Of a DNA stretch of 64,000 bases, positions 24,128 through 46,907 are shown one piece after another (the stretch's first letter is position 1; every line of letters begins with the position of its first letter). Made by a program: the position numbers and the translations under genes. The stretch comes from an uncultured Gammaproteobacteria bacterium (GTDB lineage: Bacteria > Patescibacteriota > Microgenomatia > Levybacterales > GWA1-39-11). The stretch covers positions 44,115 through 108,114 of the forward strand of contig CAZDED010000004.1 of the NCBI GenBank assembly GCA_964504535.1, read 5' to 3'. The notes beneath the pieces are model-generated. The model did no database searches. It saw only the letters and a program-made list of their open reading frames with translations, and was not told the origin of the DNA.

Positions 24128-24761
24128 AGTAATACCAAGCCCAGGTACTGAAAATAAAAATTGGGAAGATATTGAAGATAGATTAAACCGCATAAAACCT
24201 TTCGCAAAATCCATTCATATTGATGTTTTAGATGGCAAGTTTGCTCCTAATACTACTTTTTCGGATGCTTCAAAATTTTCAGGCTTTACGAAAGAGACTC
24301 TTTTCGAGGTTCATTTGATGGTCGACAACCCTGTGCAGTATCTAAAAACATGGGCTGATGCAGGATTTAGACGATTTATTGGTCAGATAGAAAAAATGCC
24401 TGATCCCATTGAGTTTGTTGCCCAGGGACAATTACTCGGAGAGGTGGGCATTGCTGTTGATGGCCCAACGGGACTTGAAGTGTTAAACAACCTTAATCTT
24501 AACGATTTAGATTGTTTACTTATAATGACAATTAACGCTGGGTTTTCAGGTCAGGAATTTCAGCCGGAAATGCTTGATAAGGTAAGAACAATGAAAGAAA
24601 AATACCCTTATTTAACGATAGAAGTTGATGGAGGAATAAATGAAAACACAATTGTTGATTCAAAAAAAGCAGGAGCAAGCAGATTTGTCACAACAAGCAC
24701 TCTTTATAAGGCTGATGACATTTCTGAAGAGTTCAAAAAATTAACCTCACTCATCAAATGA
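24120..24761 (+). CDS. rpe: Ribulose-phosphate 3-epimerase.
   Basis: IHIDVLDGKFAPNTTF and VDGGIN motifs of Rpe; overlaps rpiB by 8 nt (operon). Confidence 0.85.
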   Translation: MNEVIPSPGTENKNWEDIEDRLNRIKPFAKSIHIDVLDGKFAPNTTFSDASKFSGFTKETLFEVHLMVDNPVQYLKTWADAGFRRFIGQIEKMPDPIEFVAQGQLLGEVGIAVDGPTGLEVLNNLNLNDLDCLLIMTINAGFSGQEFQPEMLDKVRTMKEKYPYLTIEVDGGINENTIVDSKKAGASRFVTTSTLYKADDISEEFKKLTSLIK

Positions 24762-24770
24762 GTCGGGGTG

Positions 24771-24794
24771 CCGAGGGGAGTTACCCCCTCGACA
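24771..24794. terminator. GC-rich stem-loop (ccgaggggagttaccccctcg) between the convergent rpe and the GC-rich gene; candidate bidirectional terminator.
   Basis: 7-bp perfect stem seen in the sequence; no strong U-tract, so only a candidate. Confidence 0.35.
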
Positions 24795-24813
24795 CCGTTG
24801 GACTGCAAACCCT

Positions 24814-32097: not shown

Positions 32098-32134
32098 ATT
32101 AATTTAGACTATTTGTTGCTTATCCCTTGTTCGT

Positions 32135-32854
32135 ATGTTAACCTTAAATATGGGTTATGCTGGAAAATATGACGACAGGGTTAAGGCTCAAGAGTTAAGA
32201 AAGCAAGGCCTCTCATATAACGAAATTCTTCAACAGATAAAAGTTTCAAAAGATACATTAAGCAGATGGTGTAAGGACATAATTCTCACCAAAAATCAAA
32301 AAGAAAGACTTTTAAAGAATAAGTCTTTTGGCCAAAAAAAGGGTTCACAGATTGCTGCAGACAATAAGAGGTCTAGAAGGGTAATTCATACTTCAGAAAT
32401 CTTCGAAAAATCAAAAAAAGAACTTGGTAATTTAAGTAAAAGAGACAGGTTTATATTTGGGATGGCTCTTTATGCTGGAGAGGGTAACAAATCCGACGGA
32501 AAAGCAGCTTTCGTAAATGCCAATCCACACTACATTCAATTTATGAAAACATGGTTTCAAGAATTTTGCAAAATTACAGACGATGAATTTAGAGGTTCTA
32601 TCTGGCTTCATGAGGGCAATAACGAAATAAAAGCAAAAGAATATTGGTCAAAAATATCAGGGATTCCTCTTTTACAGTTGCATAAAACTTATATCGTAAA
32701 ACGAAAAGAAAATAGTAGAAAGATAAGAAAGAATATTCACGAAAATGGCGTCTTTACAATTAAATTTTATAAGAGTGACACGCAACGAAAAATAATGGGG
32801 TGGATTTCAGCATTTCTAGGTGATAAAATAGCTAGCACTCAAGGAATTGAGTGA
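32135..32854 (+). CDS. Hypothetical DNA-binding protein: N-terminal resolvase-type HTH plus a C-terminal region with a LAGLIDADG-like motif (possible free-standing homing-endonuclease-like protein).
   Basis: HTH LSYNEILQQIKVSKDTLSRWCK; motif FIFGMALYAGEGNKSDG resembles LAGLIDADG (LAGFVDGDG); ends 13 nt upstream of the intron-containing tRNA. Confidence 0.35.
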   Translation: MLTLNMGYAGKYDDRVKAQELRKQGLSYNEILQQIKVSKDTLSRWCKDIILTKNQKERLLKNKSFGQKKGSQIAADNKRSRRVIHTSEIFEKSKKELGNLSKRDRFIFGMALYAGEGNKSDGKAAFVNANPHYIQFMKTWFQEFCKITDDEFRGSIWLHEGNNEIKAKEYWSKISGIPLLQLHKTYIVKRKENSRKIRKNIHENGVFTIKFYKSDTQRKIMGWISAFLGDKIASTQGIE

Positions 32855-32866
32855 ATTGACAACTAA

Positions 32867-33155
32867 TCCGTGATAGCTCAATGGTAGAGCAGGAAGCTGT
32901 ATAGAAATGCAGCTCCCGATAGAAATATCGAGATGAATAACTGGGCTAATTCGGGGAAATCCCAAAAGGACAATCCCGAGCTAAATTCCCAAGCGAAGCT
33001 GAGGACTTGTCCTGAGTCAGCCGAAGGATAAATGTGTAGAGACTATATACCCAGGACCTAATTCGAAAGATATGGTCATAAGATAGTCCAAGCCTTTTAG
33101 TAATAGAAGGGTTCTTGTAACTTCAAGGTTCTAGGTTCGAATCCTAGTCGCGGAG
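32867..33155 (+). tRNA. tRNA-Asn (anticodon GUU inferred), interrupted in the anticodon loop by a group I intron. Exon 1 is 32867..32900 and exon 2 is 33118..33155. No encoded CCA.
   Basis: Acceptor TCCGTGA/TCGCGGA (U1-A72, G73, as in bacterial tRNA-Asn), D-arm GCTC-AATGGTA-GAGC, anticodon stem GGAAG/CTTCA, T-arm CTAGG-TTCGAAT-CCTAG. Loop after splicing is CU-GUU-AA. Confidence 0.7.
32901..33117 (+). ncRNA. Group I self-splicing intron (~217 nt, compact IC3-like tRNA-intron type) inside the tRNA anticodon loop.
   Basis: P1 has exon ...GCUGU paired with intron GCAGC (U·G at the 5' splice site). P element aattcggggaaatccc, Q caatcccgagc, R gtgtagagacta, S aagatagtcc (GACUA/UAGUC P7 pairing). 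Terminal omega-G at 33117. Resembles Azoarcus/Anabaena tRNA introns (GAAGG.GUAGAGACUA). Confidence 0.75.
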
Positions 33156-34643
33156 CACCTTACGTCTTATTATAACGTGTTGATTTGAGTTCAATACGGC
33201 AAATATAGGCGTGTATTTGACCTCAAAAATTTCCTTGTTTTTTATTAAAATCTCCTCAAAAAAGAAGCGTAAATAATGCCTTTTTAAGAAATCTGGAGCC
33301 TGTGTATATGCTTTTTTAATATTTCTCGTAAAATATAGCACCTCTTGTATTAAATTTATGTCAATTTTATTGCCACCTTCGAGCTCATTCATTGACTGTT
33401 GTAGACTATTTAACTGCAATTCTATCTCATCATATTTGCGCTTAAAGGTATCTCGAGAAATAGACCCGTCAATCATCATGTCTTCCAACTTTTCTCTACG
33501 TAACTCGTAAGCCATTCTTTGATTTTGTATTGCTTGTTTCCTCCCGGCTAGTCCCTGTCTATTTCTCTCAACCAATTCTTTCGTCTTTAAAACAACTCTA
33601 TCTATAAACTTTTGCGTAAACTGAATTTTAGATAATTCTTTTTTAACTAATTTTTCCAAATCACCCACTTCTACATACGGAGCAGGACAACCATTTCTTC
33701 CTCTCTTTTGACAGTGATAATATGCTATTTTCCCTTTTTGTTTAGTAAATCTTTTATGCTTATGCCATTCAGCTGTATATCTCTGACCACACTCACCACA
33801 CTGGATAAAACCTCTCAAAAGAAAATTATGAACACGCCTTCTTATGAGAAAGTTCCTATGCTTTGCCAATACATACTGGCATGTATCAAAAAGTTCCTTA
33901 GAAAGTATTGGTTGGTGCTTTCCTATTTTAGCCTCACCATGCCATCTAATAAGACCGTAATAGAAAGGGTTTCTAAGGATTGTGTTTATTACGCTATGAC
34001 TCAAAAGAGCACCGCTCTTAGCCAATACATTTCTTTCACACAGCCAATCCTGTATCTCCATTATCGAATACCCGCCGGTTGCATACAGCTCAAACATCTC
34101 TTTAATTATCGGAAACATATAAGGGTCTGGTTCGCAAGACTTTCTTTCTCCGTCTCCGCCCACACTCCTATAACCTAGCGGTGGAGGTGTTGGCTGCCAA
34201 CCTTCTCTAAATTTCTGCATGAGGGCATCTTTCGTTCTTGCTCCATTTACTTCACTTTCCCATTGAGCGATGCTTGCAAATATATTTGGAATAATGCTAT
34301 TTGTACCTGTAAGGTCTCCTTCGTTCACAGACAATAGTTTTATGTCTCTATTCTTGAAATCTGTATAGAGTTGTGCAAAGTCAGCGACGTTCCTAGCGAA
34401 TCTATCAATCTTATAAATAATAAGTGCTTCAACCGGCTCGTCTTTTAACTGTGCAAGCATTTCCTGAAGCGCAGGTCTAACAGTAGTTCTTGCACTTCTT
34501 CCATCGTCTGTGAATATTCTCTTTACTTCATACCCATTAAGCTTTGCGTAGTTGGTACAAGCCAGTCTCTGATTTTCAACAGAAAAGCCTTCTCTTGCCT
34601 GCTCGTCTGTAGAAACTCGTAGGTAAATGTAACAATTTTTCAT
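33144..34643 (-). mobile_element. Large serine recombinase/integrase (resolvase catalytic domain + recombinase domain + zinc ribbon + coiled coil). Its 3' end overlaps the 3' exon of the tRNA.
   Basis: YIYLRVSTDEQ catalytic Ser motif, IYKIDRFARN, C-terminal CxxC..C zinc-ribbon (CGECGQRY...CQKRGRNGC). The probable start is the internal Met at 34643, since the ORF-track start at 34715 adds an unlikely 24-aa leader. Confidence 0.85.
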
Positions 34644-34698
34644 ATTAGTATTTAGTTCAAATTTAAAATAATGTAAGCCTATAATTATCTTATAGGAA

Positions 34699-35157
34699 TT
34701 AGTTGAGTCGTTCAACCTTGCTTAATCTTAATCCTTTCCTTCTCAAAAAATCGTCAACACTCTCAATGCTATTGGCATCATTTTTATCTTTTCTTTTTAT
34801 ATAAGTATTCTTAGTAGGAAGCTCCCTTCCTTCATTACCTGGAACTTTACTTCCAACCTGATAGGAACTCCCATTCCACTCCCTTTCAAGCTCTTTCGTT
34901 ACAAAATAAGTATTTGGCTTGTTAAAACCTGTGCGCTTTTTGGATAGTATTCCTGCTTTTATCAATTCGTCTATTAAATTTCTTATATGTCTATCTGATA
35001 AGCCCATATTCTGAGCAAGTGTTAATTGACTAGGATAACAATAATCCTTTTTACCAGCGTATTTAAGGAGTATGCAGTATAGAAATCTGGCTTGATAAGT
35101 TAGCTGTGATTCAAGAAAAATGTTGTTATCAATCATTGTAAAGTTCTTTCTTTTCAT
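34699..35157 (-). CDS. Winged-helix DNA-binding protein of the phage/plasmid replisome-organiser (DnaD-N-like / replication initiator) type.
   Basis: FLYCILLKYAG...YPSQLTLAQNMGLSDRHIRNLIDELIKAGIL pattern typical of mobile-element replication/regulatory wHTH proteins. Confidence 0.5.
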   Translation of the reverse strand: MKRKNFTMIDNNIFLESQLTYQARFLYCILLKYAGKKDYCYPSQLTLAQNMGLSDRHIRNLIDELIKAGILSKKRTGFNKPNTYFVTKELEREWNGSSYQVGSKVPGNEGRELPTKNTYIKRKDKNDANSIESVDDFLRRKGLRLSKVERLN

Positions 35158-35340
35158 ATTTATTCTTATTTATTTTTCTGTAAAAACGATTAAGAACGGT
35201 TCTAAGCCATGCTCAATCACAACAATCTCCCTCTTTTCATCTTGAGAAGAACATTTTGAATGAGTGATTTTGTAGTATTCGCCAACCAACTGGTATATTT
35301 TTTTCTTCAACAATGATATTTTCTTTGTTTCTTTCATAAA

Positions 35341-35592
35341 TTAAGAGTAGATGATTTGTTTTAAATCCTTTTGTGCTCCATAAAATCTATGGGGCTCAAC
35401 TTTAGACTTGTGAGAAAGAAAATCTTCTGTTAATTTTTTTCTTTCTTTAGTTTCTTTGAAAACAAAAATAACACGCTTTAGATTTTCTTTATTAGTTGAA
35501 ATCAATTCACAAGATTGAGAGAGTAGAAAGCTTGCTAGAAGGAAAGAATCGGTTGTAAACTTTTTTTGATTATCCATTTTTTTGATTTTCAT
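35341..35592 (-). CDS. Hypothetical small island protein.
   Basis: 83-aa ORF with no recognisable domain. Confidence 0.3.
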   Translation of the reverse strand: MKIKKMDNQKKFTTDSFLLASFLLSQSCELISTNKENLKRVIFVFKETKERKKLTEDFLSHKSKVEPHRFYGAQKDLKQIIYS

Positions 35593-35762
35593 TTTTATTC
35601 TTTTGTGTTTTTATCTCCCGTCTGATTTGGGCAAAAAGTAAGTTAACCCATTGTTCGGCAAACTCATCTATTTTTTTATCCTCATTGTCTCCATTCATAA
35701 TCTATAGCCAGTATGACGTACTGAGTGAGTAATTTGGCTTCAAAATATCAGGGGAGATTAAT

Positions 35763-36545
35763 TCACAAACCGGAGGAAATTGAGATGCTTTTGCTTAAAT
35801 CGCTTATGGTTTTTCTAATATTTGAGTCTGACGGAATAAAATTATCAGGTAAATCATTAATGTTTGCGTAGTTTTTACTTAAAGCGCCAGCTATTTTAGA
35901 GGTGTTATATTCCATGAGTGAAAGAATAATTATCTCTAAATCCCTTTTGATTATTTGTTCTTTTCTAACCCTATTTAGTGGATACTTTTCGAGTTTTTTC
36001 TGAACAGAAGATATCAGAACCCAATTTTTCTCTATGAACTCGATAAGCCCATTCTGAGTTGTATCTTTGTAAAAATTGATGCTTGCTACGCCTTTTGATG
36101 ATGTGTCGATTTCGATTTTCGCTTTATGCTTGAATTCATCTTTAGAAACAATATCTTCCATAGGGCGATAAGGGGCTGAGTCTCCAAAGTATAAGTAATC
36201 ACGCAGAAAATCGATATACCTTTTCGGGTCTAGTTTATATTTTGAACACAAATCCACAACTACATAATGGTCTGAGGTAAATGGTTTGTCGTCATCAAGC
36301 CAATCAATCCATTCGTCGTACTTTCCTTCGTAACTAGTCGTTCTCCACTTTTCAGGAACGTTTAGTTCTTTTCGCAACAAACGAATGTCCTGCCTAAAAT
36401 TACTATCAAGAACTAACCGAAGAATATTTAGAATCATTTCTTGATATTCATAAACCTGGCGTGGAGAACGTGTACTAACCCAATCCAAAAGTGGTGCTAA
36501 ATCTTTAAATAACTCCTTATCTTTGATTTCTTTCTTTATCTTCAT
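35763..36545 (-). CDS. Hypothetical protein (island cargo).
   Basis: 260-aa ORF with no family recognised. Confidence 0.4.
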   Translation of the reverse strand: MKIKKEIKDKELFKDLAPLLDWVSTRSPRQVYEYQEMILNILRLVLDSNFRQDIRLLRKELNVPEKWRTTSYEGKYDEWIDWLDDDKPFTSDHYVVVDLCSKYKLDPKRYIDFLRDYLYFGDSAPYRPMEDIVSKDEFKHKAKIEIDTSSKGVASINFYKDTTQNGLIEFIEKNWVLISSVQKKLEKYPLNRVRKEQIIKRDLEIIILSLMEYNTSKIAGALSKNYANINDLPDNFIPSDSNIRKTISDLSKSISISSGL

Positions 36546-36628
36546 TTTTATAACGTATTATATATTTTGGATTCATAATACAAAGTTATTGTAACAGGAG
36601 AATTATTATTCTGAAGGAGAAGAAACTT

Positions 36629-37135
36629 TTATTGCCACTGCCAAAAACCAAAGCGCTGTTCACAACTTGCAGCTATTTTCATGAGTTTATATTTATAAGG
36701 ATTAAATATTTCGCCTTTATCATTAACAAAATCGCTAAACAAGAATGAAGATGTCTCCCCAGATGGAATAGTATATCTTTGACTTTCAGGATTGTAGGGG
36801 GCTTTGTAATCGCTGTTTAGTGTGAAGTAACATCCCTTCCAGTCCTTGGCTTCTGCATTTGTGACATCAATATGCCCATCTTTAACAGTAACGTCACCAA
36901 CGAGGTCAGAAGTGTCCTTTACCTCCTGTGGAGAGTTTGTGGTCGATTTTGTTGATGTTGAATCAAACAAAACACCGATAAATCCTATAAATAAACAAAT
37001 AACAAAAAAGCCTATTATTGCATGCTTCAGTGAGTAGCCTTTCTTCTTTTTTGTCGGTTGCACTTCATTTCGCACCTGCGAACGATATTCCTCTTCTTCC
37101 CTTATTCTTTTCTTCTCATCTTCTGATAAAGCCAT
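36629..37135 (-). CDS. Hypothetical single-pass membrane protein with an extracytoplasmic domain.
   Basis: N-terminal charged region, TM helix AIIGFFVICLFIGFIGVLF, ~100-aa C-terminal domain. Confidence 0.4.
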   Translation of the reverse strand: MALSEDEKKRIREEEEYRSQVRNEVQPTKKKKGYSLKHAIIGFFVICLFIGFIGVLFDSTSTKSTTNSPQEVKDTSDLVGDVTVKDGHIDVTNAEAKDWKGCYFTLNSDYKAPYNPESQRYTIPSGETSSFLFSDFVNDKGEIFNPYKYKLMKIAASCEQRFGFWQWQ

Positions 37136-37237
37136 ATATATCTAAAGTATAAATATATCTGAGCATATTGCAAGCACAAAATATGGCATTCGTACCATAG
37201 TTCTAAACATGGCATAAAAGCCATACTAGGCATTAGC

Positions 37238-37444
37238 ATGGCGACTATTTATAAAAAGGTTGGAAATAATATTCGCAAACTTCGTAAGCGAGCTGGACTA
37301 TCACAGGAAGACGTTTCATCTAAAGCAAAAATAGACCTTACCACTGTAAACGAGATAGAAGGTGGACTACGAAATCCATCGCTAAAAACATTACACAAAA
37401 TATCTAACGCATTAAAAGCAGACCTCAAGGAGCTATTTAACTAG
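37238..37444 (+). CDS. XRE-family (Cro/C1-type) HTH transcriptional regulator.
   Basis: IRKLRKRAGLSQEDVSSKAKIDLTTVNEIEGG canonical HTH_3. Confidence 0.8.
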   Translation: MATIYKKVGNNIRKLRKRAGLSQEDVSSKAKIDLTTVNEIEGGLRNPSLKTLHKISNALKADLKELFN

Positions 37445-37566
37445 TTCGGCTTTTTTTCAAAATTCCATCGAAGTTGTCATAGCCTCACGGTTGCTTCAAC
37501 AATAAACCCAAGTCCGATGACTTTTATTCACTATTAATCCTTACTATTCTTATTCTAGGTATACAT

Positions 37567-40500
37567 TTGTACTACAATAAAATAATGGATAACAACCCAA
37601 AATGGCACGTAGATGAAATGATAATGGCTTTAAATGCCAACATTGAATATTTAGAAAAGGAAGGCAGTGAGAATATAAGAATAAAAAATGGTAAATTATT
37701 TACACAGTTAGCAGAAAGCTATATTTATGAATTTGAGCTTGAATTTTTACAGGAAATTGAACTTGAAAGAGAAATAGAGGTACGTGTTGGTTCCGATTCT
37801 GGAAGTGGTAAAGTCGTTTCTGTTAATGACAATTTAATTCAGGTTGAGATTGATTCTTTTTTAGGTCAAGATATACCTCAAGCGCATTTAATTATTTCCA
37901 GCTTGTATATCCTAAAGCTTCTAAGAGATAAATTAGCAGAATCCAAAGAAACAAAATCCAATGGTTCAATAGCAGAAAAGCTTTTTGGAATGCAACCATT
38001 CAGTTTCGGGTCCGACTTAGAATATCAACTTCCCCCAAGACCACTTAAGGATTCAATTGATGAATATAAGGAAGCAGCACTAAGACTATCGCTAGGTAGT
38101 GAGCTGAGCTTTATATGGGGTCCGCCCGGAACTGGAAAAACAGAGTTAATCTCCCGAATCATTGAGGCACTTATAGGAAAAGGGCTTAGCGTATTGTTAA
38201 TTTCTCATACTAATATGGCTACTGATGAAGCCCTATTGAAGACTGTGAAGTTTTTAATAGATTCTCCGGAATATAAACTTGGACAGATTATTAGGATTGG
38301 TAAAATTCATCACCAAGATTTATTGAAAACCGATTATTCTAGAATCATCCCGGAAATGGCAGCTGAAGCTGCTAGTAAGCCTATCCATGATGAAATCGGC
38401 ACACTTCAAATATTAGCAGACCAACTTAAAATAGAAATTGATGGAATAAATGAAATCCTATCTGATTCAAAATCATACGAAAACTATCAATCACTAATTA
38501 AATCGGCAACTTCTCAGCTTGATAAAACAAATCAAAAAATAACTGAGCTTGAACAGTTTTTAAAAGATACAGATGATGAAATATCTATCACAAACATTAA
38601 AATTGAGAAATTTCAAAACTCTAATCGACTATCCCAAATTTTTTCAGGACAAAGTTTAAGCAAATTAACAGATGTTAAGACACAACTACTAAAAAGTAGG
38701 GCTGCTCTAGAGGATAATATTGCTACGAATGAAAGAACCAAAAATTCTATTATTCAGGATATTGATAGTTCAAAAACAAAAGCTAACATCTTAAATGAAA
38801 AAATAGGTAGTATTGATTTTAGTAAAGCAGAAGAGGAATTATCTCGCAAGAATGATAATCACTTGAATTTGACCACCCAAATTAAAGAACTGTTATCTCA
38901 ACTTACTAACATAACAGAGCACATAATAACTGAAGCAAAGGTCATAGCAACAACGCTTACAAAAAGTTATAGCGACAAATTAGTTCTTAGCAGAGAATAC
39001 GACTGCGTTATTGTGGATGAGGCATCCATGGCTCCTTTGCCAGCACTATATTTTGCTGCCTCTATTGCCAAACAAAAGGCAATAATTATAGGCGACTTTT
39101 TCCAACTCCCACCTGTAACTAAGCACAAAGTACTCAAAAACAGAGGGAAAACTGAAGAGCAATATATGGCAGAGCAAGCCTTAGTAGATAAATGGCTTAA
39201 GGGTGATATTTTTGCAAATGCTGGTATCTCAGAACTAATAAAAAAAGGGGAATTACCGGATTATCTAAGACAGCTTAAGCGACAATACAGAATGCATCCT
39301 CAAATAGCTGAGCTCATAAATACGCTTGTCTATAATAAATACGGTAATTTTGGACTAGAATCCGCTGATATAACTCAATCTAATGGTGAAGGTGGGGAAA
39401 ATGGACCTAGGGTAATAGATGTTGAACCCCTCAAGGATTTTAGGGTGGGGATTTATAATACTAACTCCTTAAATATATATCCTGGAAATACTGACTCAGG
39501 CTCATATTACAACTTATTTCATGCACTTCTAGCAGTTGAGTTAGCAAAAACTGCGGTACGAAATGGTTATGAAACGATTGGTATTATTTCTCCATTCAGG
39601 GCACAGGCAAACCTTATAACCAAAATGGTTAAAGATGAAAAATCTTTTGATGAAACCTTAAAAGGTATTGATGTTGATACCGTACATAAGTTTCAGGGTG
39701 GAGAAAAACAGTTAATTATTTTTGACATTACGACTCCTAAGTCCACTAAATTAACTAATGATGATAAAGAAGGTGGAGATGATGAAAAACTCATAAATGT
39801 AGCTTTCTCACGAGCAAAATACAAATGCATTGTTATAGGCGACATAGAAAAAATCAGAAAGAATCAGAATGAGTCTTCTCTTCTAGTACAGTACATAGAT
39901 TTTGTTGTAAAAAAAGGCTATCCAATAATCGATGCTGGCGTAATGGTGAAAAACTACTTTCACTCAGAACAAACTGAAGATTGGTTAGCTAAAATAGTTA
40001 ATGCTAGTGATATCGAAGCAGAAAAAGACGATAGTGATATCTATAACCAAAGTGAGTTTTATAAAACGTTCTTTTCTGAAATACTAAAAACTAAACAAGA
40101 GCTTATCATTCATTCTCCATATATTACTCGCTATAGAACAGCACAATTACTTCCCATATTTGATTTCTTAAGGAAAAAGAACGTTAATATTTTTGTTATT
40201 ACACGACCTTATTTTGCACATAAAGATTCAATGAAAGATGACTCACTAGCAATGCAGCGGGAAATGGAAAAATTGGGAGTGGTTGTCTTGCCATGGGGCG
40301 GAAGTATTCATGATAAATTTGCAATTATTGATAGAGAAACTTTATGGGAAGGCAGCCTAAATATATTATCTCAGAATGAAAGCAGAGAAAGAATGAGAAG
40401 ATTTAGAGGAAAGGAATCCTCGAAACAGATGTTGGATTTTTATGGTATTAAGAAGAATATTGGAGAAATTGGGAATAATAACTTAAAGAAGTGTAGGGTG

Positions 40501-40809
40501 TGTGAGGGTCCAGGAAATTGGTTTTGGACGGAGAAAGGGATGTTTGGAATTTGGACACACTGCTTAATCGGAGGACATAAGGAAGGAAAACCACCAAGAA
40601 CTCAAGAAGATAGAGAGAGAAAAAAAGAAGAAAATAAAGAACTCAGAAAGAAAGCTAGAGAGATAAATTATGAAGGTGTTCCTCTGTGTCAAAATACAAT
40701 TCATGGTTCAGAAAAAATAGAAATGGTTAGAAGAAAAGGAAGGTGGGGAAAAGATATATGGGGATGCCCTAAATATCCTGCGTGTAAATTCTTGTTGCCT
40801 GTCAAATAA
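37567..40809 (+). CDS. Superfamily-1B (Upf1/DNA2-like; AAA_11 + AAA_12) helicase fused to a single-HKD PLD-family nuclease domain and a C-terminal topoisomerase-type C4 zinc ribbon; candidate defence/anti-mobile-element effector.
   Basis: Walker A GPPGTGKT; motif II VIVDEASM; III IIIGDFFQLPPV; IV RQYRMHPQIAELIN; VI NVAFSRAKYKCIVIGD; ~220-aa coiled-coil insertion between motifs Ia and II. PLD HxK(x)4D = SIHDKFAIID; zinc ribbon GKDIWGCPKYPACKF. Confidence 0.7.
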   Translation: MYYNKIMDNNPKWHVDEMIMALNANIEYLEKEGSENIRIKNGKLFTQLAESYIYEFELEFLQEIELEREIEVRVGSDSGSGKVVSVNDNLIQVEIDSFLGQDIPQAHLIISSLYILKLLRDKLAESKETKSNGSIAEKLFGMQPFSFGSDLEYQLPPRPLKDSIDEYKEAALRLSLGSELSFIWGPPGTGKTELISRIIEALIGKGLSVLLISHTNMATDEALLKTVKFLIDSPEYKLGQIIRIGKIHHQDLLKTDYSRIIPEMAAEAASKPIHDEIGTLQILADQLKIEIDGINEILSDSKSYENYQSLIKSATSQLDKTNQKITELEQFLKDTDDEISITNIKIEKFQNSNRLSQIFSGQSLSKLTDVKTQLLKSRAALEDNIATNERTKNSIIQDIDSSKTKANILNEKIGSIDFSKAEEELSRKNDNHLNLTTQIKELLSQLTNITEHIITEAKVIATTLTKSYSDKLVLSREYDCVIVDEASMAPLPALYFAASIAKQKAIIIGDFFQLPPVTKHKVLKNRGKTEEQYMAEQALVDKWLKGDIFANAGISELIKKGELPDYLRQLKRQYRMHPQIAELINTLVYNKYGNFGLESADITQSNGEGGENGPRVIDVEPLKDFRVGIYNTNSLNIYPGNTDSGSYYNLFHALLAVELAKTAVRNGYETIGIISPFRAQANLITKMVKDEKSFDETLKGIDVDTVHKFQGGEKQLIIFDITTPKSTKLTNDDKEGGDDEKLINVAFSRAKYKCIVIGDIEKIRKNQNESSLLVQYIDFVVKKGYPIIDAGVMVKNYFHSEQTEDWLAKIVNASDIEAEKDDSDIYNQSEFYKTFFSEILKTKQELIIHSPYITRYRTAQLLPIFDFLRKKNVNIFVITRPYFAHKDSMKDDSLAMQREMEKLGVVVLPWGGSIHDKFAIIDRETLWEGSLNILSQNESRERMRRFRGKESSKQMLDFYGIKKNIGEIGNNNLKKCRVCEGPGNWFWTEKGMFGIWTHCLIGGHKEGKPPRTQEDRERKKEENKELRKKAREINYEGVPLCQNTIHGSEKIEMVRRKGRWGKDIWGCPKYPACKFLLPVK

Positions 40810-40913
40810 TAAATCAAGGGCATAGTTTCCGAAGCATTTTCAGTTCAAATACCACAAACTTCGGATACTTTTATCATCTTTCGTTCTAATAATTTATACG
40901 CCATAATTTAGTT

Positions 40914-41132
40914 ATGGACATAGCAAAAGCAAGAAAAATATTGGAAGAGGACGGAAAGAAATTAACAGACGAACAGGTGCAACAATACATAACAACCGCA
41001 GAATTATTATCAACAATGGCGTTTGACGCATGGAACAAATTAACTCCTGAGGAACGAAAGAGGTGGAGGAAAAAGAAACAAACAAAATCCAACAGAAAAA
41101 GGATTACCAGCAAACCTCTTACGAATCGTTGA
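40914..41132 (+). CDS. Hypothetical small basic protein.
   Basis: 72-aa ORF; Lys/Arg-rich C-terminus; weak support. Confidence 0.25.
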   Translation: MDIAKARKILEEDGKKLTDEQVQQYITTAELLSTMAFDAWNKLTPEERKRWRKKKQTKSNRKRITSKPLTNR

Positions 41133-41152
41133 ACCCTAGGATTTTTTGCAGA

Positions 41153-41617
41153 CTACAAACCCAAGAGCTGCTTCTTTTTTGCTTGAAATTCTTCTTCTGT
41201 AATTATGCCCTTTTCTTTAAGTCCTGCTAATTTCTCGATTTCATCTAAAGGGCTTGCAACAGCGCTTGTTGGGCTGCCACTAATCCGTTCTTCGATTAGC
41301 AATTTTGCTTCCTCAAATTTACCATTATTGCCACCATTTGCATGAAAATTGATACTATTCTCATCTTTAGTGGACTGGAACATGCCACCTTTTGCTTCAG
41401 AACCACCAGCGAGAGTAAGCTGTATGTATCCCGCTAGCATTCCTGCTTTCTTAAGCTGAACGGCAACGATACTTTTGTATGGGATTGATTTGTCTCCCCT
41501 CAGCATACCTCCACCAAGCAAAAATCCTTTAACGCCTCTTTTTATAATTACTCCTGTTGAAGTTAAAACCAACGTCCCGTTATACCCCTTGAATTCTTTT
41601 ATATTTTCGTCTGACAT
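41153..41617 (-). CDS. DUF4429 (PH-like) + SHOCT-domain protein.
   Basis: C-terminal SHOCT motif LKEKGIITEEEFQAKKKQLLGL; N-terminal GYIQLTLAGG PH-like region. Confidence 0.55.
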   Translation of the reverse strand: MSDENIKEFKGYNGTLVLTSTGVIIKRGVKGFLLGGGMLRGDKSIPYKSIVAVQLKKAGMLAGYIQLTLAGGSEAKGGMFQSTKDENSINFHANGGNNGKFEEAKLLIEERISGSPTSAVASPLDEIEKLAGLKEKGIITEEEFQAKKKQLLGL

Positions 41618-41665
41618 ATTGCTTGAGTATATTTAATTCTGTATTTTAATACAACAACTTTTCAA

Positions 41666-41935
41666 CTAAGAGTCCATTCTCTTGAAAATATCTTTAAGCT
41701 TTTTCCCAATCTCTATATACTCATTCTTTTTTGCCTGCTGACTAATTTCATCAATATACCTTGAAGATAGTCTCACCAAGCAACTTGCCCCAAAAACAAG
41801 TGCCTCATCCAAGTCTTTTTTTGCAATTTCTTTATGATTGTCCGTACTCATAAAAGAAATTACATCTAAAGGGTTCAAATGATTTTTTCTATTGCAATGG
41901 ATGTATCCTCTTGAAGTAAGCTCTATGTCATTCAA
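41666..41935 (-). CDS. Hypothetical protein (TTG start in the ORF track; uncertain).
   Basis: 89-aa ORF abutting the upstream 178-aa ORF in a different frame. Confidence 0.25.
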   Translation of the reverse strand: MNDIELTSRGYIHCNRKNHLNPLDVISFMSTDNHKEIAKKDLDEALVFGASCLVRLSSRYIDEISQQAKKNEYIEIGKKLKDIFKRMDS

Positions 41936-41937
41936 TG

Positions 41938-42474
41938 TTATTTTGTACTTTTTTTCTTGGATTTGATTGCTTCAGCAAGAATAACCAACATTTTATCAAC
42001 GTCCATACCTATCCATGAATGAAGGTCTGTGCCCGAAGGACGGTGAGTAAATTCCTTTTTTACTTTTTTATATTTCCTATCAATGTCTTTTATATCTTCT
42101 ACAGAAAAGCCTAACAAACCAACCGGATTGAGCCCAAGCCTACGAACAAACTCTAACTCCTCGTGCATCTGCACTGACAGAAAACGCTTGAATTTTCGGG
42201 CAAGCCTCCTTTTGCCAAATGCGACCATATACTCAATAGCAACTGTGTCTTCAATCATTGCTCGTACTAAATCTAATGCCTTATCTCCAAATAATTCATT
42301 TTTTGTAGCTAAAAATCTCACAGAAAGTAAAGAAAATACATTTCTTCTATATATGCCTTCAAAAATATTAAGAAACTGATTTCCGTCAGGAGGGTGGTGA
42401 TTTGTTGCAAGTGGATTTACTAAGTCCAACAACTCATCAACGGTCGCAAGTAGTTCATCGGTAGTGCCTTTCAT
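41938..42474 (-). CDS. Hypothetical protein.
   Basis: 178-aa ORF with no family recognised. Confidence 0.35.
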   Translation of the reverse strand: MKGTTDELLATVDELLDLVNPLATNHHPPDGNQFLNIFEGIYRRNVFSLLSVRFLATKNELFGDKALDLVRAMIEDTVAIEYMVAFGKRRLARKFKRFLSVQMHEELEFVRRLGLNPVGLLGFSVEDIKDIDRKYKKVKKEFTHRPSGTDLHSWIGMDVDKMLVILAEAIKSKKKSTK

Positions 42475-42544
42475 TTGAGGTTATTATAACCTATTAAAAA
42501 CGGCTCGCTTTTTTACAATAGTTCGTAGTGATTTGAACTAAATC

Positions 42545-43726
42545 GTGTTATACTTCGATGAATTCCTGCCCAAAGGCAGGTTTTTTTGTATGAATTGGGT
42601 TCCCATAACTTCTATCTTTACAATTTTAGCTTTCTACGTTGCATGGGCTGCATTTTACATTGAAAGAACTAGTAAGCTCCGTGGAAAAAGAGAAGAAAAA
42701 ATAGATATTCTTAAGTCAATTGAAAAGGAACTATCACTTATGGGTAGTTGGCTAGGTGAGAACTATAACGATGCAAATTACACTCAACTACAAGACCCAT
42801 GGCACCCATTTCATATGGTATATGGGCTTGTAAGGAATGATGCGATTAAAAACGCGATATCTTTGAAATCCGTATCGCTTCTTTCAAATGATTTGCTTGA
42901 GGCACTCGTCGCTTTTAATCAAAAGATGGGAGGGTTTGAGCAGCACGTCAATAGAATGGTCCAATTTAATACTTCAGACCCCATCATAGCAACAAAGGCT
43001 TTCTATTATTACGACAGCACTTTTGCTAAATATTCAAGACCTAAGAAATGGCTAGAGTTTGAAAAGCTTGCAAAGAAACTGTTTACGGGCAAAAGATTAC
43101 TCCCAGAAGAAATCCATCTTGTTGGGAGCGTAAGAATCCTAAAAGACCTTCATGTTATTGGGATTGGAGATGAAAATAATCCTACGCACTTACGGTTTTC
43201 CTATGTAATAGTTAGAGACATGGTAAGGGTCGAGTTAGCTGAAGTTTCTAGGGAAAAATTGTTTAGGCAGCCACGGTTATTTTCAATGCTTGATGCACTC
43301 GTGGCATTCTCCTTTGTTGCGCTTCTTGTCGCGATTCCTGTTTTCACAGTGGAAGGAGGTGTATTGATAAAAAATATGAATTCTATTTCATTTTTATTAC
43401 CGTTAATTTCAATAATCGCTGTTAGTATATTTCTAGGATTGATAAAGTATGCTTCAATCGCTAGCAAGTATATTGGCACCCCATGGCAATCTAAATTTGC
43501 CGAAATTTGGAATGATACACTTAATTTTCTCTTAGCGGGGCTCGTTGGATATTACTTTGTTTTGGTAAGACTGCCAAAACTATTGGCGGGAGAGAGTGTC
43601 GGTTTAAGCGATTTCGTGTTGTTCTTTATATTCGCAATGGGTATGTTCGGACATTTATGTGTATTATCTAAAAATACGACCGAAGGCGTTCAGGCTATAA
43701 TGGAAAAGATTATTGGAAGACACTAA
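42545..43726 (+). CDS. Hypothetical polytopic membrane protein.
   Basis: One N-terminal TM helix plus ~4 C-terminal TM helices flanking a ~200-aa soluble domain. Confidence 0.4.
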   Translation: MLYFDEFLPKGRFFCMNWVPITSIFTILAFYVAWAAFYIERTSKLRGKREEKIDILKSIEKELSLMGSWLGENYNDANYTQLQDPWHPFHMVYGLVRNDAIKNAISLKSVSLLSNDLLEALVAFNQKMGGFEQHVNRMVQFNTSDPIIATKAFYYYDSTFAKYSRPKKWLEFEKLAKKLFTGKRLLPEEIHLVGSVRILKDLHVIGIGDENNPTHLRFSYVIVRDMVRVELAEVSREKLFRQPRLFSMLDALVAFSFVALLVAIPVFTVEGGVLIKNMNSISFLLPLISIIAVSIFLGLIKYASIASKYIGTPWQSKFAEIWNDTLNFLLAGLVGYYFVLVRLPKLLAGESVGLSDFVLFFIFAMGMFGHLCVLSKNTTEGVQAIMEKIIGRH

Positions 43727-44423
43727 TCCTTTGATACAATTCAGCACTATGGCTCACATGGTACCATCAAAATATTCCGCAGCATCAGAATTGCGCGCAA
43801 TCGCTCTTGGAAGAGTTGCAAAGAGCTTGCCCTGCTATGGCGCTCTACCGGTGCCAATAATGAGGCTTTTGGTCGACGAACAGCTATTACTGGAATCTGT
43901 AAAGAGAACCACATTCAAGGGAAAGGTGGAAATTATAGACTTACGCGGAGAAAATACTGAATATCTCGACGAGGAAGAACCTGCAACAATTGCATATAAT
44001 GACTATAGCTTTGTAATGGCACCGGCATATAAAGCGTTTGAAGGATACCTAATTTTTCTTTCTGATACCTTTGGGCTTCCAACTGAAACTTACAAAAACA
44101 GAATCGGAGGGCTCTATGATTGGGAAGCAAATGCAGCAGCTGAAAAGGAAATAGTTGAAGCTCTTGAAGCCAAGCTTGGTACTGACAAAGAAGGAAAAGA
44201 CCGTTGGAGAGAATTAAGCATGGTTCTACGAACATATCGACATAATCCTGCACATTTTTTAGGAGACAAAGTCGGAACATTCGAGCAAGCAGAGGATTGT
44301 GCAAAAGCGATATTGAATACAATAAATCAAATGACAAAGTATTTAATCGATAAGGAAGTTTTGCACGATGGCGACAAGGAAGACGAAGCAATTTGTGATG
44401 TTAATAATGAGCAGGTTCGCTAA
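43713..44423 (+). CDS. Hypothetical protein.
   Basis: 236-aa ORF overlapping the upstream gene by 14 nt; no family recognised. Confidence 0.4.
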   Translation: MEDTNPLIQFSTMAHMVPSKYSAASELRAIALGRVAKSLPCYGALPVPIMRLLVDEQLLLESVKRTTFKGKVEIIDLRGENTEYLDEEEPATIAYNDYSFVMAPAYKAFEGYLIFLSDTFGLPTETYKNRIGGLYDWEANAAAEKEIVEALEAKLGTDKEGKDRWRELSMVLRTYRHNPAHFLGDKVGTFEQAEDCAKAILNTINQMTKYLIDKEVLHDGDKEDEAICDVNNEQVR

Positions 44424-44510
44424 TTTCTTTTGAAAGCTTTTTTATCTCTTCCCATCTCTGCCTTAGTTCTCCAGTCTGGCTAGAATTTTGGAACGTGAGT
44501 ATAATATTGT

Positions 44511-44573
44511 CAGGGATGGGGAGCACCACTTTTTAGCCTCAATTTTGTCATACCCCGAGTAGGACGATCGAAC
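44511..44573. repeat. Copy A of a ~60-bp direct repeat; contains ggagcacc, identical to the 3' end of the tRNA-Asn gene (candidate decayed att site).
   Basis: Alignment by eye: ggggagcacc-ac-tttttagcctcaatttt-g-tcataccccgag...cgaacc versus copy B. Confidence 0.5.
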
Positions 44574-44578
44574 CTAAT

Positions 44579-45289
44579 TTATTGAAGATCGTCAAAAAAT
44601 TCTTGTTCTTTCTCTCCTAATGGTTTTATAACAGTTAGGAAATTTATGCTTAGTCCCTTCAATCCAGTCTGAACACGAAAGTCATCGCCACAGTCTCCTT
44701 CTGAGATAGGATATTCAGCTAACGCAGATCTGTTCAGTCCGATCACAACACCTCTGCTTTTTCTTGCTTCAAGAACAGCTTCACGAATTGTTTCTTCAGA
44801 TAAATTAAATGATGAGAGAGCTGTCCTTGCTTCTCTTGTAAGGAGATTATCATATTCATATTCCTCTACCAGATTGGATGCTACATGAGCATGCGGTTCG
44901 ATTGGTAATGAAAGGTGGCTCAAGAAACGATGTCCTTGTGCATTAGTTTCAGCAGAACCTTCACTGACAGAAATTGCGTAATCTGTACCATAATTTGCGA
45001 CATCTGACCCCTCAGGCAGTTCCTCGTATGGGAAATTACTCGCTGGAGTGAAGTATACATCTCCGATTTGTGGTACTTCAGGCATACCTGCATATTGAGG
45101 ATTTGTACAACCTGGGATCACGCCCCTCTGTAGAAGTACTTTCACGGTCTCGATGCTTGTTCCATGATAGGCGATACAATCCTCAGAAATTAACGGTTCT
45201 TTAGATAATCGTACAAGCAAGCCTTTTCGATATTCAACTGATTGATATTCAGCCGCTGGTATTACTCTGTTATCAGATTCATTAATCAT
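44579..45289 (-). CDS. Hypothetical protein.
   Basis: 236-aa ORF between the two repeat copies. Confidence 0.4.
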   Translation of the reverse strand: MINESDNRVIPAAEYQSVEYRKGLLVRLSKEPLISEDCIAYHGTSIETVKVLLQRGVIPGCTNPQYAGMPEVPQIGDVYFTPASNFPYEELPEGSDVANYGTDYAISVSEGSAETNAQGHRFLSHLSLPIEPHAHVASNLVEEYEYDNLLTREARTALSSFNLSEETIREAVLEARKSRGVVIGLNRSALAEYPISEGDCGDDFRVQTGLKGLSINFLTVIKPLGEKEQEFFDDLQ

Positions 45290-45397
45290 GCTCCGAATTA
45301 TACATAATTATTCATATAATAGGTTCTGACATTTTCTATCAGGGGGAGCAAATGATTTTCGATTGACGTCGTTTTTATTTACTGCTAAAATCCCTCC

Positions 45398-45652
45398 ATG
45401 ACTGAAATTACTCCAAGCTGTCCTGCAGGAAGTGGAGAGTGCCCCGTTGAATGTCCTATTTATTTCGCTGCAGTAAACTCTATGCCTCCCATTGAGGAAA
45501 TCGACCCATATATGATGCGCTTGTCTTTGCTATTTGCCGATGCATTTAATCATGAAATTAAGGTTGTTGATATAGCAAATGTGTTAAGTAGATGCATGAA
45601 AGAAACAGGAAGGAATTACCTTCAAGAATTGAGTGATAATAATCAACTCTAG
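45398..45652 (+). CDS. Hypothetical small protein.
   Basis: 84-aa ORF, Cys-rich N-terminus (CPAGSGECPVECP). Confidence 0.3.
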   Translation: MTEITPSCPAGSGECPVECPIYFAAVNSMPPIEEIDPYMMRLSLLFADAFNHEIKVVDIANVLSRCMKETGRNYLQELSDNNQL

Positions 45653-45663
45653 TTTTAAACTGG

Positions 45664-45736
45664 CGGGAGTCCTAGCGGGGGAGCAATGTATTTTTAGCCT
45701 CAATTTTTCTTCAACCCCAGTTGGATGCTCGAACCA
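45664..45736. repeat. Copy B of the ~60-bp direct repeat; its 5' part (gagtcctagcgggggagca) resembles the T-stem/acceptor 3' strand of the tRNA-Asn (candidate attR-like remnant).
   Basis: Shares tttttagcctcaatttt, accccag and cgaacc with copy A in the same orientation. Confidence 0.5.
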
Positions 45737-46060
45737 TTTGTTATAATGTCTTCATCTGTGAAGTACAACGAATACAAAATTAATACCATTGTTTGGTTGT
45801 ATCCCAGCATGGCTGGGTGGCACTTTGTAACAATTCCGGAAGATGTGTCTGATGATATAAATCATCAATTTGGAGATAGAAAAAGAGGGTGGGGCTCTCT
45901 ACCAGTTAAAGCAACAATCGGAAAGACCACATGGGAAACATCCATCTTTCCAGACAAAAAAACAAATACGTATCTTTTACCTGTCAAAAAAGGAGTGAGG
46001 AAAAAGGAATACATTAAAGCAGATACTAATGTATTATTAGTACTTGAAATAAAAGCCTAG
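45725..46060 (+). CDS. DUF1905-family protein (YdeI/OmpD-associated). The true start is probably the internal Met MSSSVKYN.
   Basis: Family-typical ~100-aa beta-rich pattern (WHFVTIPEDVSDDI...LPVKA). Confidence 0.5.
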   Translation: MLEPFVIMSSSVKYNEYKINTIVWLYPSMAGWHFVTIPEDVSDDINHQFGDRKRGWGSLPVKATIGKTTWETSIFPDKKTNTYLLPVKKGVRKKEYIKADTNVLLVLEIKA

Positions 46061-46094
46061 TGGCTTTCAAAGATCTGGTACAATACCAACATAT

Positions 46095-46502
46095 ATGAAA
46101 ATAGAAGATAGAACAAAAGATAATCCATGGAAATTGAAAACCCCCCCACTTTCCTCAGAATACGAAATGTATATTGACGAAAAAGAAGGTTCAAAAGTCA
46201 TCGTATGCGTAGTTGGTAAAACAACATTGCTTTATGACTACGATGCAATTGCCGATTTATACCAGATGCTAAAGTCTCATGGAGATTGGATGGAATTAGG
46301 TGGAGCAGACGAGCAGAAGCCAACAAAAGAAGGGACTGTTGAAGACTGGGGACGTTCTTCTAAAAACCCTAAAGGTGGTTGGTATGGTTTGAAAAAAGGA
46401 CTTCGTGGAAGATTTGGCGTATACATGCCACCACTACTTGAAACGCTTGGATTAGCTGAGCTTGAGCATAACCCAAGGAATAATAGAATGAAAGCTAAAT
46501 AA
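46095..46502 (+). CDS. Hypothetical protein.
   Basis: 135-aa ORF with no family recognised. Confidence 0.35.
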   Translation: MKIEDRTKDNPWKLKTPPLSSEYEMYIDEKEGSKVIVCVVGKTTLLYDYDAIADLYQMLKSHGDWMELGGADEQKPTKEGTVEDWGRSSKNPKGGWYGLKKGLRGRFGVYMPPLLETLGLAELEHNPRNNRMKAK

Positions 46503-46522
46503 CGCTTCTAGCTAAATCAGGA

Positions 46523-46762
46523 CTATTTATCTTCTGGCAGTGCATCAAACTCTTTGCGTTTTTCATCCATCCATTTTTGCATTGCTTCAGGGTCTTTCAT
46601 TTTCTCTTTCATTTGTTCCATCGCTTTCAAATGTGCGTCATCTCCTTTTTGGAACATCTCTGCTCCATGTTGTTGGCTGAGTTTGGCCATTTCATCAAAT
46701 GTTTCAGCATGAAACTCCATATCACAAGCACCTGCCAACTGATTACATGTCATTGTCTTCAT
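46523..46762 (-). CDS. DUF1059-family small metal-binding protein.
   Basis: MKTMTCNQLAGACDMEF start typical of DUF1059. Confidence 0.55.
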   Translation of the reverse strand: MKTMTCNQLAGACDMEFHAETFDEMAKLSQQHGAEMFQKGDDAHLKAMEQMKEKMKDPEAMQKWMDEKRKEFDALPEDK

Positions 46763-46907
46763 AAATTTTTACCTCCTTCCCATAAACATTATACATTAGG
46801 ACGGATTTTGGAGAGCTGTAGCAGCATAATAGGTTCTGAACGATTTCATTAAGTGGGGCAAAACAGAAGCTCTTTATCATACTTCTTCAATTTGATATCA
46901 TATAACT

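Follow-up and report, generated by a model that had tools for sequence, protein, structure and literature searches.

A probable single-gene defence protein, predicted to be distantly related to type II Mokosh, on a strain-variable island of a Levybacteria-like bacterium

In type II Mokosh, one protein, MkoC, carries a helicase in its N-terminal part and a phospholipase D (PLD) nuclease at its C-terminus, and neither the ATP site nor the PLD site is dispensable for defence (Millman et al. 2022). The Mokosh II protein of E. coli protected only against a single-stranded DNA (ssDNA) phage and was a monomer in solution. Another described helicase, CnuH of CoCoNuT systems of types II and III, is Upf1-like, with an oligonucleotide-binding (OB) barrel and a stalk, and its Walker A motif is followed by a coiled-coil insert; CoCoNuT systems are defined by CnuH together with the McrB-like GTPase CnuB and the McrC-like CnuC, and their nuclease effector is fused in type III-B and is a PLD in type III-C (PMC11090510). 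A gene that encodes a helicase, a PLD nuclease, and two zinc ribbons was analysed here in a 64,000-nt stretch of DNA (the window; contig CAZDED010000004.1, positions 44,115–108,114) from a Levybacteria-like bacterium of the candidate phyla radiation (CPR).

The favoured explanation, which is considered fairly probable from the sequence, is that the protein acts as a stand-alone helicase–nuclease effector of immunity or against mobile genetic elements (MGEs), distantly related to MkoC and carried as exchangeable cargo of a serine-recombinase island by a tRNA-Asn gene. The gene is a probable single-gene defence, and its product is a good candidate for a single-protein defence or anti-MGE effector. 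An earlier sequence-only reading had proposed a defence module of an XRE regulator and the helicase, possibly a Mokosh-like variant, and its interpretation was partly supported.

Domain architecture of the helicase–PLD–zinc-ribbon protein

The large open reading frame (ORF) spanned 37567–40809 (+) and encoded 1080 aa from a TTG start. The ATG at 37585, which gives 1074 aa, is the likely start of the gene, and both starts were chosen by gene callers in metagenome contigs identical to the window. The ORF was intact in the window translation and cannot be a chance reading frame, because more than 645 full-length homologues exist. The gene contained the following features.

37585–40809 (+): helicase–PLD–zinc-ribbon gene, 1074 aa, alternative TTG start at 37567 (1080 aa); Pfam, PADLOC, homologues, AlphaFold2
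37597–37950 (+): N-terminal helix, beta-barrel, and helix (residues 5–122), the 1B/OB barrel with stalk; AlphaFold2, Foldseek matches to IGHMBP2/UPF1/DNA2
38119–38142 (+): Walker A motif GPPGTGKT (residues 179–186, with K185); invariant in 30 of 30 aligned sequences, kept in 109 of 110 members
38350–38907 (+): antiparallel coiled-coil insert in RecA1, about 185 residues (256–441), where Upf1 has domain 1C; AlphaFold2
38908–39924 (+): rest of RecA1 and RecA2, colinear with MkoC; Pfam, alignment, hhalign
39013–39030 (+): motif II, VDEASM; alignment
40036–40419 (+): single-HKD PLD nuclease domain (residues 818–945); PLDc_2, PDB profile, Foldseek, 109 of 110 members
40303–40335 (+): SIHDKFAIIDR, with the HxK(x4)D motif at 40309–40332
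40351–40362 (+): GSLN, invariant in the alignment
40492–40578 (+): zinc ribbon 1, CxxC...CxxxxH (residues 970–998), with invariant C970, C973, and C993 and near-invariant H998; 108 of 110 members, TopA match
40687–40785 (+): zinc ribbon 2, topoisomerase type (residues 1035–1067), with invariant C1035, C1061, and C1067; weak Zn_ribbon_Top1 match, TopA match

The XRE gene and the large superfamily 1B (SF1B) helicase ORF were found as the sequence-only reading had described them, with Pfam matches to HTH_3 (2e-13) in the former and to AAA_11 (2.5e-31) and AAA_12 (2.2e-27) in the latter. The top PDB sequence match of the helicase–PLD protein was DNA2 (1.5e-20), and UPF1, IGHMBP2, and SEN1 were also close. 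An AlphaFold2 model built on 30 homologues had a mean pLDDT (a predicted score for the local distance difference test) of 83, and its leading Foldseek matches were SETX, UPF1, IGHMBP2, and DNA2. Two RecA domains, the SF1 motifs, and the 1B barrel with its stalk placed the protein in SF1B at the superfamily level; the stalk and OB logic for residues 5–122 was borrowed from the description of CnuH (PMC11090510). The long coiled-coil insertion recognised earlier was modelled as a 185-residue antiparallel helical insert (residues 256–441) with helices at 256–345, 358–407, and 412–441. It had been taken as a distinguishing feature, which it is not: MkoC has about 400 residues there, and the CnuH coiled coil sits at the same place (Bell et al. 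2024, PMC11090510).

A linker modelled with low confidence (residues 790–806) preceded the alpha/beta PLD domain (residues 818–945). The assignment of a single-HKD PLD nuclease was borne out by a PLDc_2 match of 1.9e-7 and 31.5 bits, above the cut-off of 27 bits, and by one HxK(x4)D(x6)GSxN motif in a fold of the Nuc/Zucchini type. When the C-terminal 299 residues were modelled separately, the closest Foldseek match was Nuc (PDB code 1byr), with a TM score of 0.73 on the target, followed by Zucchini/PLD6, NucT (6ehi), and PLD3/4. The C-terminal profile matched PLD6/Zucchini (2.8e-7) and NucT (6e-4) in the PDB. Nuc of pKM101 and NucT, the closest folds, likewise have one HKD motif per chain and an active site across the dimer, but these nucleases, of about 155 aa, stand alone and have neither a motor nor zinc ribbons.

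Two small ribbons ended the modelled chain. The topoisomerase zinc ribbon of the earlier reading was real, since the C-terminal profile matched residues 712–793 of E. coli TopA, its zinc-ribbon region, with an E-value of 1.1e-6; there were two ribbons and not one, with CxxC..C..H at 970–998 and C..C..C at 1035–1067, and the Pfam match to Zn_ribbon_Top1 (0.0055) was under the family cut-off. In the 30-sequence alignment the Walker A motif, motif II, and HxK(x4)D..GSxN were invariant, and the zinc ligands were invariant or nearly so. The catalytic motifs and zinc ligands were retained in 103–110 of 110 full-length members. The Walker A and HKD motifs, both singled out in the sequence-only reading, were each kept in 109, and in one member the HKD histidine was replaced by arginine.

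Relation to Mokosh and to other helicase–nuclease systems

The relatedness to Mokosh was supported by the PADLOC models. The best was MkoA (PDLC03920; 212 bits, 4e-63), which covered residues 116–771, the helicase part only, and was matched only at positions 576–1097 of 1112. The MkoC model (PDLC03924) gave 151 bits (9e-45), with its best stretch at profile positions 856–1108 of 1136. Four divergent family members scored 131–158 bits over the last 22–40% of the MkoC model and 189–227 bits on MkoA, whereas genuine MkoC proteins of Arsenophonus and Vibrio reached 1387–1414 bits over positions 1–1135. When compared with a four-sequence MkoC profile by hhalign (probability 99.85, E 9e-31), residues 449–926 were colinear with MkoC 647–1126, through the linker between RecA2 and PLD, and the homology was limited to RecA1b, RecA2, the linker, and PLD. 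BLASTP matched E. coli YjhR at 2e-14, and the identity to MkoC proteins was 21–24%.

The order of type II Mokosh was present in the protein: AAA_11 and AAA_12 were followed by PLDc_2, and the folds agreed. The sequence-only reading had placed the PLD domain at the N-terminus of fused MkoC and had counted the domain order as a difference from described systems. Neither point stood; the published type II Mokosh, YjhR, which belongs to the MkoC family, and the MkoC proteins of Arsenophonus and Vibrio all show a C-terminal PLD domain, and the order is no difference because MkoC likewise has the helicase and then the PLD. The same order was found in yjhR remnants of E. coli and in full-length MkoC genes on plasmids of Arsenophonus, Vibrio, Pseudomonas, and Agrobacterium. 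The yjhR loci inspected in E. coli genomes were all truncated or disrupted by insertion sequences, and a search with the K-12 YjhR fragment gave only fragments, of up to 588 aa, among the matches listed.

Like MkoC, the window protein is a single polypeptide in which an Upf1-like SF1 helicase is followed by a C-terminal single-HKD PLD domain, with Walker A and motif II set far apart (by about 400 residues in MkoC), and both occur on plasmids, islands, and defence loci. The ATP-binding motif and the HKD site were intact (GPPGTGKT, DEASM, and HxK(x4)D..GSxN) and were conserved in 109–110 of 110 members. The real differences lie in the N-terminal half, which is another one in MkoC, in a helicase core nearer to the MkoA models, and in the tandem TopA-like zinc ribbons: MkoC stops right after the PLD domain, whereas the window family adds about 130 residues with the two ribbons. 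The hosts also differed, being CPR and other uncultured phyla for the window family and Proteobacteria for MkoC. Type I Mokosh resembled the protein in the helicase core of MkoA and, weakly, in the PLD domain of MkoB. However, MkoA has an STK domain and MkoB is a separate gene, whereas the nuclease of the window protein is fused; no kinase family was found among the Pfam matches of the protein, and no PLD or PADLOC match was found in the neighbouring ORFs.

The helicase–PLD family thus appears as a lineage apart, which probably shares an ancestral helicase–PLD fusion with MkoC. The protein is most likely a distant cousin of the single-gene type II Mokosh and not a new kind of system; it would be type II Mokosh-like in its workings, yet it fails membership of the family profile. 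The DefenseFinder and PADLOC pipelines would be expected to leave it uncalled, because the best model was MkoA and MkoA alone is no system. More tentatively, and with the balance leaning against it, the family may be a third Mokosh-like type that shares the fusion with MkoC and has gained ssDNA-sensing ribbons, forming the principal helicase–nuclease defence of CPR/Patescibacteria, missed by the pipelines and interchangeable with restriction–modification (RM) systems on serine-recombinase islands at tRNA sites.

Other systems were alike in part. CnuH, compared by description only, has a helicase with barrel, stalk, and coiled coil and is paired with a nuclease; the window protein differs in its single HKD domain and zinc ribbons and in an island without CnuB and CnuC genes. 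CoCoNuT was rejected, as no McrB, McrC, AAA_5, or DUF2357 was found by Pfam and PADLOC in the island or in the eight homologue contexts. DNA2 and Nhi have an SF1B Upf1/DNA2-like motor fused to a nuclease, but their nuclease has another fold and sits at the N-terminus; no PADLOC match to Nhi was found at E ≤ 0.01, and PADLOC-DB v2.0.0 includes an Nhi model. Nhi and Hachiman HamB were considered and rejected as the identity of the protein, as were Gabija GajB, which gave only Walker A-level PADLOC matches, and the PLuB helicase, whose model has a cut-off of 999 bits and reached 104.

The family, the island, and the genomic contexts

At least 645 proteins matched the window protein at E ≤ 1e-10 among 8000 candidates scored in the protein database. 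The best 120 homologues were nearly all 1040–1090 aa long, with the same architecture and 40–66% identity, and the named members came from Gracilibacteria, Saccharibacteria, Omnitrophica, and metagenome-assembled genomes (MAGs) labelled only as bacterium. The helicase–PLD–zinc-ribbon family is large, unnamed, and mostly from CPR and uncultured bacteria. When a 50%-identity cluster library was compared with the C-terminal 299 residues, 25, 326, and 1161 clusters matched at 1e-30, 1e-10, and 1e-3 or better, respectively; many of these were 1000–1300 aa with the PLD domain at the same position.

Graded relatives were sorted by domain hidden Markov models (HMMs) made from the family alignment. Full-architecture relatives of 25–28% identity were found in MAGs of Bacillota, Planctomycetota, and Hydrogenedentota, among the matches listed in a GTDB genome scan, and Actinomycetota relatives had the helicase and PLD without ribbons. 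Helicase-only relatives of about 29–32% identity (L019–L024 and L027–L028; Peribacillus, Bacillus, Guptibacillus, Carbobacillus, Cellulosilyticum, and Roseburia) shared the N-terminal barrel and were without the coiled coil, PLD domain, and zinc ribbons; with the family HMM no PLD ORF was found adjoining them. PLD-only matches, 35–47% identical to the family PLD domain, occurred in many metagenome contigs (L096–L167), and many PLD-segment relatives in the cluster library were stand-alone proteins of about 150–160 aa. Most of the 80 metagenome loci from the C-terminal profile scan likewise encoded stand-alone PLD proteins of about 150 aa. The fused nuclease domain could have come from such proteins. 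A plasmid tblastn search with the window protein gave no full-length relative and only MkoA-like helicase matches.

In the window the gene stood on an island with the following features.

32867–33156 (+): tRNA-Asn(GUU) with a 217-nt group I intron (32901–33117), island immediately 3'; Rfam, ARAGORN, sister comparison
33189–46866 (no strand): strain-variable island, about 13.7 kb, approximate extent; blastn against the island-free L082, gene tables
33144–34715 (−): large serine recombinase, the island integrase; Pfam Resolvase, Recombinase, and Zn_ribbon_recom, PHROG integrase 1e-108
34699–35157 (−): HTH_36 replication-initiator-like island protein; Pfam, PHROG
37183–37224 (no strand): a pair of operator-like palindromes (ATGGC-N6-GCCAT), spaced 26 bp apart, in the divergent promoter region that separates a 168-aa gene from the XRE gene
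37238–37444 (+): XRE-family helix-turn-helix protein, 68 aa; Pfam HTH_3 2e-13, PADLOC 'Control_protein' 4.5e-14

The earlier placement of the gene on an integrase island was upheld by the large serine recombinase and by the variation among strains. The SigA of the window fell into a 90%-identity cluster named Candidatus Levybacteria, which makes the host a CPR bacterium. Upstream of the island stood dnaG, sigA, and tRNA-Asn, and the 3' end of the recombinase gene overlapped the 3' end of tRNA-Asn by 13 nt. The island continued with HTH_36, DUF5659, two unknown genes, XRE, helicase–PLD, SHOCT/DUF4429, DUF5677, and further unknown genes. When the window was compared with the sister contig L082 by blastn, homology ended at 33188 and returned at 46867. 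For the sister comparison 24 contigs were read, each encoding the very same SigA (100% identity): 14 of them were represented by the layouts without an island (L082 and L083), and the L085 layout was that of the window. At the same place, L084 and L086 carried a related element with a serine recombinase 31% identical, DUF5659, and an XRE 40% identical, and beside that XRE the cargo was an N6_Mtase/Eco57I protein (722 aa) with a specificity subunit (493 aa; L084 12018–20943). L087 had yet other content, including a Fic protein.

The helicase–PLD gene is strain-variable cargo, because sisters with identical SigA are without the island or have the RM-carrying element, and the difference between L084/L086 and the window looks like a cassette exchange of defence cargo. 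These comparisons bear on whether the protein could instead be a housekeeping repair or replication helicase–nuclease of CPR bacteria, similar to DNA2 or AddAB. CPR genomes are without many standard repair proteins, DNA2 was the top PDB sequence match (1.5e-20), and dnaG and sigA are near the gene. However, the gene was missing from identical-SigA strains with otherwise syntenic flanks, no synteny was kept among homologues, the spread over CPR, Omnitrophica, and other uncultured phyla at 40–47% identity was patchy, the full-length relatives of 25–28% identity extended to Bacillota and Planctomycetota MAGs (among the matches listed), and the nuclease is a PLD, unlike the PD-(D/E)xK nuclease of DNA2. 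A core repair helicase is excluded for the window lineage because the gene is strain-variable cargo, and for the family a housekeeping role is very improbable. The possibility, raised in the sequence-only reading, that homologues are core-genome replication or repair helicases in syntenic, non-island settings was contradicted both by the 14 island-free contigs and by the varying contexts elsewhere.

The proposed module of XRE and helicase did not hold. XRE was present in only two of the eight family contexts, and no conserved partner gene was found up- or downstream of the helicase–PLD homologues, so a two-gene system was dropped. The palindromes lay upstream of XRE, and none was found within 140 nt ahead of the helicase gene. 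In the palindrome scan one of them was the sole perfect copy in the window, with six matches against 1.3 expected; when promoters and terminators were sought near XRE and the helicase gene, the results were no better than for shuffled sequences. XREs 40% identical to that of the window occurred in L005 and beside the RM cargo of the sister element in L084. XRE is therefore an island backbone regulator, because it is also in the RM-carrying element, and probably serves the island itself as a switch or controller protein.

Four of the eight contexts of the core family were on serine-recombinase islands. The homologue P0002 (65% identity) lay on another such island with XRE on the opposite strand, P0091 on a serine-recombinase/HTH_36 island adjoining smpB, and P0110 of Saccharibacteria on a serine-recombinase/DUF5659 island. 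Directly 3' of P0110 was a 679-aa gene with AAA_15/AAA_21/SMC_N and DUF4435, the domains of a fused PARIS (L078 12809–14848, JACAFG010000001.1). P0065 was flanked on one side by RadC and a Gabija-like pair of OLD-TOPRIM ATPase and UvrD helicase; its other flank held TraG, an integrase, AbiEi, and SoFic, and HigB was also in the cluster. P0073 was 33 nt 3' of an Mrr_cat/NA-iREase1 gene. The recombinases of the family islands were 23–31% identical to each other, and no neighbour was conserved. Among 102 neighbours of 12 loci with distant helicase–PLD relatives, PADLOC matched type I RM, BREX (PglX, PglZ, and BrxD), type IIG, DRT, and other systems. Nine large neighbours were mapped, and only a type I hsdR was placed (L039, two genes upstream of the helicase–PLD target with a 308-aa ORF between); the BREX, type IIG, and DRT matches were not placed on loci. 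Small and uncontrolled as this sample is, the contexts point to a self-contained, defence-type gene. Near the P0110 locus (L078) two Mtd_N genes of diversity-generating-retroelement type were also observed.

The recurrence on serine-recombinase elements, two of which also had an HTH_36 gene and two DUF5659, would suit a protein that serves the island and not host immunity, either as a helicase–nuclease of replication or transfer or as an exclusion or addiction function with which serine-recombinase elements compete against rivals. Nuc, the structurally closest PLD, is encoded on plasmid pKM101. Against this, the element recombinases were only 23–31% identical, no backbone gene co-varied with the helicase, the sister element at the same site manages without the gene and carries RM, the gene was also found without nearby element genes and in a classic defence cluster, and a scan of IMG/VR viral contigs gave no relative of the protein. 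An island-serving function is therefore held to be improbable, if less so than a housekeeping one.

Several side observations concerned the island and its surroundings. PADLOC and PHROG identified only the integrase and the replication-initiator-like protein among the other island genes. Its 3' part contained a SHOCT/DUF4429 gene (41153–41617, −), a DUF5677 gene (41938–42474, −), two overlapping genes of 393 aa and 236 aa (42545–44423, +), and a 236-aa gene (44579–45289, −); the genes of 41153–45289 could be further uncharacterised cargo. The intron of tRNA-Asn matched Rfam RF00028 with 58 bits, and lay between anticodon positions 35 and 36; default ARAGORN missed the split gene. The joined exons 1 and 2 were exactly the uninterrupted tRNA-Asn of L082, L084, and L087. 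The intron is therefore specific to the strain and presumably mobile. In L082, a partial, disrupted 5' half of tRNA-Asn was followed by an 82-aa GIY-YIG ORF and an intact tRNA-Asn (11180–11546), as if a homing endonuclease or an intron had once been active at this gene. Between sigA and tRNA-Asn, a 239-aa ORF with a weak HTH_23 match (32135–32854, +) was found; positions 32106–32797 had no counterpart in L082 and form an insertion, and other strains had different ORFs there (163 aa and 281 aa). A GC peak at 24001–26000 (0.50 against about 0.37 elsewhere) coincided with a 439-aa ORF (24814–26133, −), which had no Pfam family in the sister strains and a length of 406–443 aa across strains.

Proposed mode of action and significance

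In the proposed mechanism, the tandem zinc ribbons, which are of TopA type, would work with the Upf1/DNA2-like motor (1B barrel, stalk, and RecA1/2) to grip exposed single-stranded nucleic acid of an invader, such as ssDNA phage genomes, replication or recombination intermediates, or incoming conjugative strands, with ssDNA favoured over RNA. ATP hydrolysis at K185 and motif II (DEAS) would power 5'-to-3' translocation. Nuc and Zucchini are dimeric single-HKD nucleases in which two domains pair to make one active site. The PLD domain of the window protein (H909, K911, and D916) would be half an active site and, because of its single HKD motif, must join with another HKD domain. Probably two protomers would dimerise, either on the substrate or by way of the long coiled coil, after which their paired domains would cut nucleic acid through a phosphohistidine intermediate. 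XRE would act as an autoregulated island repressor, and the helicase gene would be read through from the XRE promoter or from its own promoter. The substrate, polarity, dimerisation-dependent activation, and protection phenotype are all predicted here. The monomeric state of E. coli Mokosh II and its restriction of an ssDNA phage only would fit ssDNA targeting by a protein that is inactive at rest and activated by assembly.

Several points weigh against a defence protein of this kind. Only the last quarter to 40% of the MkoC model was matched, with no full-length profile match, and the N-terminal 448 residues were unaligned with MkoC in hhalign. Two of the eight contexts (P0046 and P0020) had housekeeping flanks with no defence or mobile genes, the sample of defence neighbours was small and had no background control, and PADLOC gave no defence match on the other island genes. 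Dimerisation is predicted only because each chain has one HKD motif and by analogy with Nuc and Zucchini. In addition, RNA could be the substrate, as Upf1-like helicases and Zucchini act on RNA.

With the same defence role, the motor would then thread RNA/DNA hybrids or the transcripts of phages or elements, leaving the Zucchini-like PLD domain to cut single-stranded RNA, as a prokaryotic analogue of MOV10L1 with PLD6/Zucchini in the animal piRNA pathway. These pair an Upf1-like helicase with a single-HKD nuclease, but in eukaryotes the two are separate proteins and process RNA on mitochondria, and the likeness is at the domain level only. Mokosh was tied to MOV10L1/PLD6 by Cury et al., and RNA was argued to be the target of Upf1-like CnuH systems by the CoCoNuT authors (PMC11090510). 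The helicase fold was closest to the RNA helicases SETX, UPF1, and IGHMBP2 in Foldseek, and PLD6/Zucchini was the best PDB profile match of the PLD domain. However, DNA2 was equally good in sequence and fold, the PLD fold was equally near to the DNases Nuc and NucT, the added C-terminal module matched the ssDNA-binding zinc ribbons of TopA, and the phage restricted by E. coli Mokosh II is an ssDNA phage. An RNA target is rated unlikely, while standing ahead of an island-serving function, and a defence effector directed at DNA is preferred.

If the protein is a working defence, it would extend Mokosh-type immunity, the mechanism of which is unsolved; a PDB search gave no Mokosh structure. The practical payoff is modest, a candidate for validation and for DefenseFinder and PADLOC models and not a new principle. 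The TopA-like zinc ribbons, as an extra nucleic-acid-binding module, could reveal what the system senses, and a widespread single-gene system would be added to CPR bacteria, in which few defence systems have been described. The sister strains would be a natural experiment, with the same site empty, occupied by the helicase–nuclease island, or occupied by a related RM island, and their comparison would show a cassette-like exchange of defence cargo.

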